From the NCBI RefSeq assembly GCF_044324785.1, contig NZ_CP172132.1: a stretch of DNA of 4,394 nt; one strand, given 5' to 3'. Below, one piece after another: positions 1-2,340 of the stretch. The notes under the pieces were generated by a model. The model saw nothing but the letters and a program-made list of their open reading frames with translations, ran no database searches and was not told the DNA's origin. The first letter of the stretch is position 1, and every line of letters begins with the position of its first letter. The position numbers and the translations under genes are program-made. This stretch comes from Escherichia coli (GTDB lineage Bacteria; Pseudomonadota; Gammaproteobacteria; Enterobacterales; Enterobacteriaceae).

Positions 1-1083
1 TGCTTTATGGATCTGCTTCTTAAGATGTTTTCTGGCTTTCCGCATAAGCTTCTTATGACTGTGCGCACGGCATAAGACCATTTGAAATTTGGTCGTTTGC
101 GTGTGCATGTGGAGTTTGAAGCTGTGCGGGCGTCACTTTCGTCAGCGTTAAAGCTGACAAAGTGACGCTCGCACGTCTACTCAACGAACCCGCATAAACT
201 GGCTCTTCACGGGATGTTTTTTAACATTTGAAGAAGTGACCAGACGTGAGCGTTTTTTTCAGCCTCATTCTGTATCGTACTGACGCTTCTCCGGACTGAC
301 TTCCTGAAAGCTTAGTACCAACTGCAGAATCACATTGTTTTTTAAGGAGTTTAATGTAGTGAGTTACCGAATCGGCGATATATCTGACAGGCAGATATAT
401 CGGGGGCGACCTTTAAAGGTACAGTTAATTCTGCGGTCGGTTAGCCAAACCGACTTGACACCCCGCTAAACCTGAACTGATTGCGTTACCCTGACGCACA
501 GGTACTCACTCACCGAAGGAACGTAACTACAAACCGTGTCGTCAGGTTAAATGCAGAAGCACAGAAAACAGGAAAGATATCCTGGAAACCACAGGGGAAT
601 GAGCATGTAGGTATCTTTGGTGTTATCCGGATCGCCGTAAACCCTGCCATGAAGGACAGATTTTGACGGCGATCAGGATAAAAAATGCCATAATGATTGT
701 GGCCTTAAAATTATCGAAAACACGAATTTAGTTTTACATTTGTGCGCGTATGTACGCCTCAAAAAAAACAACCAACGAAAAACAACTCATCAACAAAATA
801 ATAACAAAACCTTCTTGTTTTGTGATTTATGTTGCACAGTTTGATTGTAAGTCACATCTGTGAAACGAAATTGTTTTGCGCTATGGCACCTGATGAGATA
901 AAAGAAAGAGGGGTGTTTCTGTATCGTAAAGTCTCTAGCCGGATAGCTTTTCATTAGTAGTACAGAAACATCCCCACTCATCAGGATTCAGGATCGATAG
1001 CCATTCGATATAAGACTGCTGATTGTGTCTTCGTTAAAATCTATCTTTTCACGTGAGAATTAAGAACTGTTAATTCATCGTTT

Positions 1084-1118
1084 GTATCCCCTATCATTAG
1101 GATAGGGGATATTTTTAT
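1084..1118 (+). terminator. Rho-independent terminator-like hairpin
   Basis: An 11 bp stem (1085-1095 / 1101-1111) with a 5 nt loop ATTAG is followed directly by TTTTTAT. The T-run is only on the plus strand. Confidence 0.45.
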
Positions 1119-1196
1119 CGCAAAATACACACCAAAAGTAGTGTTATATAAGTTTTCAATGACCGTTTCTTACTGAAAAGAAGATAGGGGATTCGT

Positions 1197-1509
1197 GTTG
1201 ACATCCTCCATGCCCTGAAGGACGGGGTTTTACGGCGCACCGAGTAAATCTTCCCCCCGAAAGCCCAGTATCGGGGGGAAGATGCATTAACGGTTCGTCT
1301 TCGGACACTACCGTGATTGCGGTGATGAGCATATCAGCTCAACGGGAGAAATTGAACGCGTTTCTGACAGTGTGGCTAACACGGCGAAATAGACCTCAGA
1401 TATCTGCCAGAAACGCGTCACGTATTTTTAACGTGTATCAATATCCATGTCGAGATAGTTATCCGGTGTGCTGTAAAACCCCGTCCTTCAGGGCATGGAG
1501 GATGTCAAC
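1197..1509. repeat. Non-coding element bounded by 37 bp perfect (44/46 bp extended) inverted repeats; MITE-like or protein-recognition element
   Basis: GTTGACATCCTCCATGCCCTGAAGGACGGGGTTTTAC at 1197-1233 is the exact reverse complement of 1473-1509; the match extends to 1242 and 1464 with two mismatches. The 221 bp interior holds a 13 bp perfect-stem palindrome (1248-1260 / 1271-1283) and an 11 bp inverted pair (1356-1366 / 1408-1418). No transposase-sized ORF and no obvious target-site duplication. Confidence 0.7.
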
Positions 1510-1520
1510 TTAGATATGGA

Positions 1521-1547
1521 TAAAAAAAACCCTCAATGAATGAGGGT
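1521..1547 (-). terminator. Rho-independent terminator-like hairpin
   Basis: The minus strand reads ACCCTCA-TTCAT-TGAGGGT (7 bp stem, 5 nt loop) followed by a T8 run, which is the A8 at 1522-1529 on the plus strand. It faces the inverted-repeat element from the right. Confidence 0.5.
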
Positions 1548-2340
1548 AAGTGTAAGGAAGTACCTGATTTATTTTACATATTGACCATCAATAACTGAGC
1601 AAAAAAAAAAAAAATAACAAAACCATGACATAGATACAACCTATTTTTCCTGTGCAAGATTACCTCGTTTGCCATAAAACTCCGTTCTTCAGCTCAAGGA
1701 AAATTTTGAAAACCATAGCGTGTATCACTATATGAATGAATATATTGTTGCCATATTGTAGTGTAATATTTATTATTTTTTGACTGTTTTTAGTTTATTA
1801 TTTTATTTTTTCTATATTTCCAAAGATAATCTTTTTATATTCTGTTTCTCGATACTAGACATAAAATCAAATTCACGATAAATATTAATTGCGCGTTTCT
1901 GCCCCCCCCACACCTACTAATTACTACCTGTGTTTAGTTACACAATCAGAAACGCGCTTTTTAAGCGTTAAAATAGCGTGATGAACTCCTACAGATATTC
2001 AAATACCTCTACGTCATCGTGAAAGGACGCGCTTTGCCAGAGGCGAGGTTTTGTTTTCAAGTGTGCCCTGGTGCTTGATATCCATCCCGTCCTGAAGGTT
2101 GGAGATTCCTACGTTGCTCAGGCTTGCTCTTTAGTCACACATGAGTCACTTCGATGGGGGACTGCTGCTGGCGGCATTAACGCATCTCTCACGTCAAGTA
2201 ACACAAGTAATGTTCGACATGGTTTGCCATACCGCTCTCTAAAATCGATTTTGACGCAATTTATTTACTTGGTAGTACCATTGCATACCTGACACCAAAA
2301 AAACGAACCAGAGGGCGTTTTAGATGCCTTAAAATCGATT

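Follow-up and report, generated by a model that had tools for sequence, protein, structure and literature searches.

The window analysed here is a 4,394-bp stretch of Escherichia coli DNA that forms a closed circle, because large E. coli records run unbroken across its end-start join: they match 4372-4394 plus 1-545 in one piece (96% identity over 11-545), and end and start are contiguous in other records. repA (2341-3033, minus strand; 693 bp, 230 amino acids), which matches Rep3_N and Rep3_C, is the sole open reading frame (ORF) with a Pfam family match on the whole circle, and four iterons of about 22 bp lie upstream of it at 3128-3215. The replicon is a Rep_3/iteron plasmid with repA as its single recognisable gene, and the coding share amounts to about 16% (693 bp of 4,394 bp). 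An earlier note on the first 2,340 nt had taken them for plasmid DNA, which is borne out by the Rep_3 initiator with its iterons, by matches to more than 1,000 enterobacterial plasmids and by the contiguous ends. Our subject is this 1-2340 stretch, which we propose to be the non-coding accessory part of a minimal Rep_3/iteron plasmid, one that recombination and single-strand transposition would have assembled, rather than a designed array of control sites.

The earlier note had seen no convincing protein gene in 1-2340 and no ribosome-binding site before any ORF of at least 60 amino acids, and both statements hold. None of the four such ORFs (481-666, 1313-1513 and 2071-2292 on the plus strand, 790-981 on the minus strand) has a Shine-Dalgarno (SD)-like motif 4-12 nt upstream, and the ORF content is at chance level, the longest open frame being 103 amino acids against 105 ± 24 in 300 dinucleotide shuffles (p = 0.45) and frames of at least 60 amino acids numbering 9 against an expected 8.1 ± 2.2. 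Six-frame translation of 1-2400 returns zero Pfam families at E ≤ 1, and the six frames of 611-2078, compared with 5.8 billion protein clusters, give no match at E ≤ 0.01. Gene poverty reaches beyond 1-2340, and in this respect the earlier note understates it: three further ORFs (3317-3664, 3679-4017 and 3711-4298), GC-rich and 112-195 amino acids long, have no Pfam match. The second of them was suspected by eye to encode an AlpA/excisionase-like helix-turn-helix protein, a suspicion to which Pfam gave no support.

Small proteins, for instance a type I toxin or some microcin-like peptide, might nevertheless be encoded unnoticed in the AT-rich part. The candidate is a 33-amino-acid ORF on the minus strand (1574-1675). 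No other ORF of note is preceded by an SD motif; this one combines a GGAG motif with a hydrophobic tail and has a strong terminator right after it. In the homologue of this block (82% identity), however, a 4-nt indel breaks the frame and neither the start codon nor the SD motif is kept, while the FFFF run of the putative peptide is a poly-A tract read from the other strand and no frame matches any protein. We accordingly rejected the ORF as a small toxin gene and regard hidden small-protein genes in this part as extremely unlikely.

What the stretch does contain becomes apparent on comparison with related plasmids. At 560-610 on the plus strand lie the last 16 codons and the stop codon of mobQ, whose translation, HRKQERYPGNHRGMSM*, is the C-terminus of the 719-amino-acid MobQ of the sister plasmid NZ_CP100537 (L002). 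Stop codons stand directly upstream of this stub, and the breakpoint falls at 557/558, inside mobQ. The sister also has a MOBQ nick-like sequence, TAAGTGCGCACT, upstream of mobQ and outside the shared block, which is not found in the window. Because the stub equals the end of the sister MobQ and the nick-like site is gone, the plasmid, as read from these alignments, is a descendant of a mobQ-bearing ancestor. Two other pieces, a STAXI-EFASI cassette and the segment 3501-3945, stand where the sisters carry mobQ and oriT.

From 558 to about 2450 the window behaves as one travelling block. Six E. coli plasmids of 5.3-11 kb share it at 99-100% identity and have no annotation over the shared part. 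The alignment of relatives that the earlier note had proposed does therefore bring out a conserved non-coding block, at 99-100% in about six sister plasmids. In sliding comparison with the sister L001, identity stays at 99-100% from 558 to about 2450 and falls to 61-90% over roughly 2458-3553, whereas against a 4-kb plasmid (L272) it is 83% over 2246-2345 and 99-100% over 2346-3345. From 2246 on the sequence belongs to the rep module, 2246-2340 being 81-83% identical to 4-kb plasmids of rep_cluster_1778. On the evidence of these opposed profiles, the non-coding block comes from one lineage and the rep-iteron module from another, brought together by a crossover in the 3' end of rep. Plasmids of the 4-kb type carry the same initiator and replicon (99-100%) without the 611-2245 module; since they replicate with the same initiator, the block is not needed for replication. 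Its first part, an orphan spacer at 611-1196 (37% GC) that contains the hairpin H1 described below and a strong hairpin with a T-run, has no protein or Pfam match, and the six sister plasmids are the only matches to the query 558-1196 in the plasmid collection.

The very uneven GC of such a mosaic, together with repeats that could mislead assemblers, raises the question whether the gene-free stretch is an assembly chimera of mis-joined contigs. Against this, 558-2340 is collinear at 99% with six complete plasmids from separate sequencing efforts (Japan, Switzerland and elsewhere), and the end-start join is contiguous in other records, which leaves an assembly artefact with a next to negligible probability.

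The second class of relic is found in the middle of the block, where a 51-nt inverted repeat (1197-1247 and 1459-1509, 92% complementary) is formed by two miniature elements of 46 nt each. The left one occupies 1198-1243 on the minus strand beside a TTAC target at 1244-1247, and the right one 1463-1508 on the plus strand beside a TTAT target at 1459-1462. Of 5,426 complete E. coli genomes, 1,748 carry the arm repeat. It lies mostly in prophages and usually occurs just once, with unrelated flanks. When the tnpB 3' ends of E. coli D6, Methylocalor and Xanthomonas are aligned, they share a terminus, ...CCTTCAGG...GGAGGATGTCAA, which is the right end (RE) of an IS200/IS605-family element. In the D6 insertion sequence (IS), whose TnpB matches the guided_TnpB model NF040570 at 388 bits, the 28 nt on the right of the arm are identical to the RE after tnpB, and the 36 nt on its left are identical, on the same strand, to the sequence beside the 3' end of tnpA. 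The arm therefore looks like a hybrid of left end (LE) and RE that keeps one hairpin.

Across 54 copies in at least eight flank contexts, the unit always starts after TTAT or TTAC and always ends in TCAA. IS608 has the same boundary pattern, its right end finishing in TCAA. An empty and a filled site could also be paired: the plasmid L003 reads ...TTTTTTTTAT, then the 46 nt ending in ...GGATGTCAA, then AAATTTCTTCGAAAGG, while the plasmid L010 reads ...TTTTTTAT-AAAATTCTTCGAAAGG, so that the insertion lies 3' of TTAT and without target duplication. Because insertion 3' of a tetranucleotide without duplication is the "peel-and-paste" signature of IS200/IS605, we infer from this one empty/filled pair that the 46-nt element is, or was, mobile. 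Gene-less IS200/IS605 derivatives that are mobilised in trans, the PATEs, have been documented (PMC10055086). A literature search with the sequence strings of the element found only unrelated primers.

Two further observations concern where copies lie. In Stx1 prophages a copy stands some 40 nt before the stxA1 start codon, bordering the promoter region of the toxin gene on its upstream side (L006 3001-3051; about 20 of the 54 copies). Several copies (at window 1248-1282 with 1244-1247, at L003 1378-1410 and in L028) directly follow a strong hairpin or terminator with a T-rich stretch ending in TTAT or TTAC, which suggests that the element prefers terminator-proximal targets.

Between the two elements lies a 211-nt interior (1248-1458), with a G/C-rich hairpin at 1248-1282 and a second hairpin (H2) at 1356-1418, that is found only in sister plasmids. 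As single-stranded DNA (ssDNA), 1190-1516 folds at -102.7 kcal/mol (z = -16.7), and this single very large fold, the good preservation of the arms at 92% complementarity and the presence on the same plasmid of STAXI, a motif for which an ssDNA role has been proposed, could indicate that the 313-bp unit 1197-1509 works as an ssDNA hairpin, for example as a primosome or priming signal or as a single-strand promoter. The arms, however, occur singly with unrelated flanks in prophages and plasmids, so that two insertions account for their pairing here; the interior is confined to this lineage and no -35/-10 pair was identified in the stem. We consider a functional ssDNA hairpin very unlikely and regard the large fold as a consequence of two insertions, not as a sign of function. 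On the same grounds the arms were rejected as classical terminal repeats of an IS or Tn element, since they occur singly elsewhere, and the 313-bp unit was rejected as a proliferating miniature inverted-repeat transposable element (MITE), since its interior is unique to this lineage.

A third relic lies at 2075-2196 on the minus strand and corresponds to the right end of an IS200/IS605-family element: the last ~80 nt of tnpB followed by hairpins of the omegaRNA scaffold and RE, with the terminal TCAA at 2078-2075. The segment is 75-77% identical to plasmids of Xanthomonas, Burkholderia, Methylophaga and Methylocalor, and its Methylocalor counterpart comprises the last ~60 nt of insQ/tnpB and 43 nt beyond. 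A scan for the right-end core, with one genome per species, returned 94 loci (L177-L270), many of them in Beta- and Gammaproteobacteria and others in Chloroflexota, Cyanobacteria, Actinomycetota, Deinococcota, Nitrospirota and Verrucomicrobiota, with no Enterobacteriaceae among the matches listed. All 71 usable IS copies can be aligned to 2074-2196, with 76-80% identity and the TCAA end in common, and in 17 of the 36 copies with enough upstream sequence an ORF of at least 300 amino acids runs into the segment. The frame in the window still reads ...PPAAVPHRSD...*, where the C-terminus of a TnpB has ...PPAAGTHRSD...*. A 27-nt core (GTAGGAATCTCC..CCTTCAGG.CGGG) is seen in at least seven phyla and is multi-copy in Aquaspirillum serpens, Oligella urethralis and Lautropia; such cross-phylum conservation is unusually strong for an IS end.

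Folding of the single sequences reveals, in 51 distinct copies, a stem of about 12 bp between two conserved anchors, with plain compensatory changes; RNAalifold on a MAFFT alignment missed this covarying stem owing to gap placement. The scaffold stem has a mean minimum free energy (MFE) of -18.3 kcal/mol over the 51 copies, as against -9.2 in shuffles, whereas the window stem reaches only -5.1 kcal/mol, weaker than in every one of them, and the terminal hairpin has broken pairs. The segment was not found on E. coli chromosomes, and six-frame Pfam comparison finds no tnpB on the plasmid. Judged by its decayed pairing and its homologues, 2075-2196 is a relic of a foreign IS right end and omegaRNA scaffold, not a working guide RNA.

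The composition of the stretch can be read against these boundaries. The earlier note had described sharp compositional shifts, and these are real, GC ranging from 25.6% to 50.5% between adjacent segments: 46% over 1-557, 37% over 558-1196, 50.5% over 1197-1509, 29% over 1510-1641, 25.6% over 1642-1887 and 46-48% over 1888-2245. Because the seams match the mobQ breakpoint, the ends of the IS200/IS605 elements and the tnpB fossil of a non-enterobacterial IS, mosaic origin is a better explanation of the alternation than functional architecture, and the GC shifts would be seams between pieces of different origin. The most AT-rich piece, an orphan segment at 1642-1887 that carries T-tracts, has no homologue beyond the sister plasmids. 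As for the phased TTTATTATTTT tracts that had been noted in this region, the tracts themselves are present (1770-1812), but the signal for their phasing is weak: AA/TT power peaks at 11 bp, a value that 2.3% of shuffles reach, and only 3-4 of the A/T tracts in 1550-1900 are locally in phase.

At the other end of the stretch, 1-557 is the distal half of a STAXI-to-EFASI cassette on the plus strand, which on the circle continues from 4372-4394. STAXI (RF01728) lies at 4098-4271 on the plus strand and scores 78.9 bits against an Rfam gathering score of 40.5; it appears as two direct repeats of about 60 nt (4099-4155 and 4161-4216). EFASI (RF02957) follows on the same strand about 480 nt downstream, at 357-510, covering model positions 1-133 of 133 with 48.6 bits (E = 9.9e-8), so that it misses the gathering threshold of 51.2 by 2.6 bits although its homology is not in doubt. 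EFASI stands for "Enterobacteriaceae, Frequently Around STAXI and Integrases" and is usually found a few hundred bases downstream of STAXI (Rfam text, PMC12370729); its RNA has been detected by RT-qPCR (reverse-transcription quantitative PCR) in a related strain (PMC12370729), and the EFASI primers of that study match the window exactly at 389-408 and 457-476. For STAXI, its authors raised a single-stranded-DNA role yet favoured RNA (PMC2864571).

The order STAXI then EFASI recurs in an O-island-like ter/ure locus (L004; STAXI 5717-5868, EFASI region about 6350-6500) and in the IncK plasmid L010, where IS100 splits the cassette, and in all three contexts homology ends at about window 546-557. 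EFASI does not lie upstream of an integrase here, as the plasmid has none and the mobQ stub follows directly. A GTG-initiated ORF over EFASI (359-469) was discarded because the IncK homologue has a stop codon inside it. The spacer between the two motifs holds a hairpin with a near-perfect stem of about 23 bp (118-180; RNA MFE -42.5 kcal/mol), after which direct reading shows no T-run on either strand; its first half alone is shared with the sister plasmid L001 (window 1-142). L001 has, in addition, a STAXI-like stretch (88% identity to window 3956-4215). The present plasmid carries STAXI without an ssb, topoisomerase, antirestriction or integrase gene.

Two terminators and a family of hairpins complete the inventory. 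A block of about 120 nt at 1520-1641, conserved on plasmids only, ends on the minus strand in an intrinsic terminator, ACCCTCA-TTCAT-TGAGGGT followed by T8 (stem 1547-1529, T-run 1528-1521). It recurs at 81-82% identity in 8.9-kb ColE1-type plasmids and in large plasmids, and in E. coli it is found at 82 places in 36 genomes, none of them chromosomal. In the L003 copy the stem is CCCCTCT/AGAGGGG, two compensatory pair swaps away from the window. Nowhere else in the backbone are the signs of selection as good. The block is a candidate for either a transcription stop or the 3' end of a small RNA (sRNA); Rfam finds for it only a sub-threshold resemblance to generic Hfq-type sRNA terminators. The block was also considered as the terminus of an IS3-family element and rejected, because in L010 it is abutted by an IS end (which we take to be the right end of IS2) and is not part of the IS. 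The other terminator-like hairpin, at 1084-1117 on the plus strand, has a 12-bp stem followed by TTTTT (MFE -18.7 kcal/mol). Because in the sister plasmids the whole backbone sits between convergent rep and mobQ, the two terminators would plausibly stop read-through between these genes in the parental plasmids.

The three hairpins of the GTTTCTG/CAGAAAC family, H1 (910-974), H2 (1356-1418) and H3 (1891-1957, with TTTTT after it on the plus strand), have loops of 33-47 nt, and their number compares with 0.002 expected from 1,000 shuffles. A fourth copy occurs in the L003 homologue, which does not have 1642-1887 and in which a hairpin of this family stands within about 35 nt of the terminator block. 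Since H2 (plus), H3 (minus) and this copy have a common loop-proximal sequence, the three are considered paralogues. A hairpin with the H2/H3 stem, GCGCGTTTCTGG...CCAGAAACGCG, is also found at a Qin-like prophage locus (L176 3526-3590; about 20 IMG/VR contigs), with flxA on one side and a disrupted ISNCY-family transposase on the other, and Rfam has no match for it. A loose pattern scan of viral contigs for the family returned mostly chance matches, among which only the Qin-like locus shares the extended stem. The hairpins were rejected as integron attC sites because reading of the sequence finds no RYYYAAC/GTTRRRY cores.

The stretch could instead be an array of functions that the plasmid needs, such as dimer resolution, partition or gyrase sites, antisense regulators and curved DNA bound by H-NS. 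Several of the features above speak for such an array: EFASI is a curated motif whose RNA has been detected in a related strain, the terminator block is conserved elsewhere with compensatory changes and an sRNA-like architecture, the three hairpins are non-random, the 11-bp AA/TT periodicity is reached by few shuffles, and the module is kept in about seven plasmids with different cargo. Direct searches for the expected sites, in contrast, came back empty. No cer/dif-type Xer site (consensus XerC and XerD 11-mers 6-8 bp apart) reaches 16 of 22 matches anywhere on the circle, and a site suspected by eye near 685-700 was dropped on the same scan. Nine oriT nick motifs, of MOBQ and other common types, matched at best at 57-77%, which is chance level in what is a weak test. 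Promoter-like sites number 7 against a shuffle expectation of 7.0, and Rfam gives no significant family in 540-2345. Moreover, the 4-kb plasmids run the same replicon without the module, which shows that replication does not depend on it, and the mobQ stub, the decayed tnpB right end and the transposon miniatures are demonstrable relics. A functional array is, on balance, unlikely. Of what the earlier note had written on this point, the presence of structured DNA survives, in the form of the EFASI motif and the plasmid-conserved terminator block, but the reading of the composition as architecture does not, and there is little to support a region crowded with cis-acting sites and small RNAs.

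We therefore consider mosaic assembly to be the probable explanation of 1-2340 as a whole. Mobile-element debris and recombination scars account for much of what can be recognised, and about half of the stretch is without a homologue. The miniature elements would have been delivered by TnpA acting in trans, on ssDNA exposed by plasmids or phages, and most of the stretch may well be passenger DNA whose sequence has little or no specific function; the EFASI RNA and the two terminators would be the likeliest parts to act.

Several observations weigh against this interpretation. The block is conserved at 99-100% in the sisters, which fits recent common descent and is also compatible with function. 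The terminator block, at about 81% on unrelated plasmids and with compensatory changes, is probably under selection, and the GTTTCTG/CAGAAAC hairpins are far from random. For about 830 nt (611-1196 and 1642-1887) the sisters alone provide homologues, and calling these parts 'junk' is an argument from absence. Finally, the LE assignment of the miniature element depends on a single conserved IS locus, a chromosomal one in which tnpA is a pseudogene.

A bolder extension of the mosaic interpretation would make the 46-nt hybrid an active, TnpA-mobilised ultra-miniature transposon that spreads through ssDNA stages of plasmids and lambdoid prophages, the stxA1-upstream site included, with the GTTTCTG/CAGAAAC hairpins as a second, undescribed palindromic element and the module as a reservoir of both; we regard this as decidedly doubtful. 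If it were true, an active transposon of 46 nt would be smaller than PATEs and MITEs as they are generally known, and closer to a repetitive extragenic palindromic (REP) element.

Several further features were noted on the plasmid. The segment 3501-3945 (57-64% GC) is 93-95% identical to E. coli and Shigella plasmids of 1.5-2.5 kb, in which its counterpart is mostly unannotated, and 3490-3555 may resemble ColE1/pBR322 around CTTCCGCTTCCTCGCTCACTGACTCGCTGCGCTCGGTCG...GCGGCGAGCGG (a primosome-assembly region). A perfect 14-bp tandem (TTAAAAACAAGATC twice, 3268-3295) adjoins the iterons. A-rich strings of the AACAAAATAATAACAAAACC type occur at 759-811 in the backbone, at 1605-1624 in the terminator block and at 3334-3361 in the origin region. 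The rep stop codon is flanked by a 21-nt inverted repeat (arms 2238-2258 and 2325-2345), and each arm contains the 12-bp palindrome AAAATCGATTTT (2241-2252 and 2330-2341), 89 bp apart and bracketing the stop; the pair may be a candidate protein-binding pair or a terminator.

A long, gene-free and patchy plasmid stretch has in this case been resolved, for about half its length, into relics and known motifs without new biology, which counsels caution in genome scans. The analysis also adds a naturally occurring plasmid in which coding sequence makes up only about 16%, and a non-coding block of 1.8 kb that passes from replicon to replicon as a unit. The 46-nt element is common to plasmids, Stx prophages and other lambdoid prophages and, if active, would be relevant to the persistence of the smallest transposons and to the origin of REP-like repeats. 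STAXI and EFASI on a tiny, easily manipulated replicon offer a convenient system for testing the roles of both motifs. All kinds of component found here are known, and what is modestly new is the extreme gene poverty, a 46-nt relic with an empty/filled pair and an unexplained hairpin family.

Compared with known systems, the miniature elements are closest to PATEs, with which they share IS200/IS605-derived ends, a subterminal hairpin, the lack of terminal inverted repeats and of target duplication, insertion 3' of TTAT or TTAC and many copies with unrelated flanks. PATEs are about 100-400 nt long, whereas the element here has 46 nt and a single LE/RE-hybrid-like hairpin without an omegaRNA scaffold, which places it nearer to a REP element in size. 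The fossil at 2075-2196 resembles the TnpB omegaRNA and right end of IS200/IS605 elements in its tnpB 3' homology, the ~43 nt downstream, the anchors, the terminal hairpin and TCAA, but it has no tnpB and no left end, its covarying stem and terminal hairpin are degraded, and its nearest relatives are Beta- and Gammaproteobacteria outside the Enterobacteriaceae.

The cassette agrees with Rfam EFASI and STAXI in its full-length model match, the ~480-nt spacing, the shared strand and its occurrence on enterobacterial mobile DNA, and differs in a sub-threshold score and the absence of an integrase gene after EFASI; its host is a 4.4-kb one-gene plasmid, not a genomic island or a large plasmid. Among rep_cluster_1778 plasmids, rep and iterons are 99-100% identical to 4.07-kb MOBQ-mobilizable plasmids of E. 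coli and Salmonella, and the non-coding block is 99-100% identical to plasmids of 5.3-5.6 kb. Unlike these relatives, the plasmid described here no longer has mobQ, mobC or the nick-like site; their place is taken by the STAXI-EFASI cassette and a segment of the 1.5-kb plasmids.

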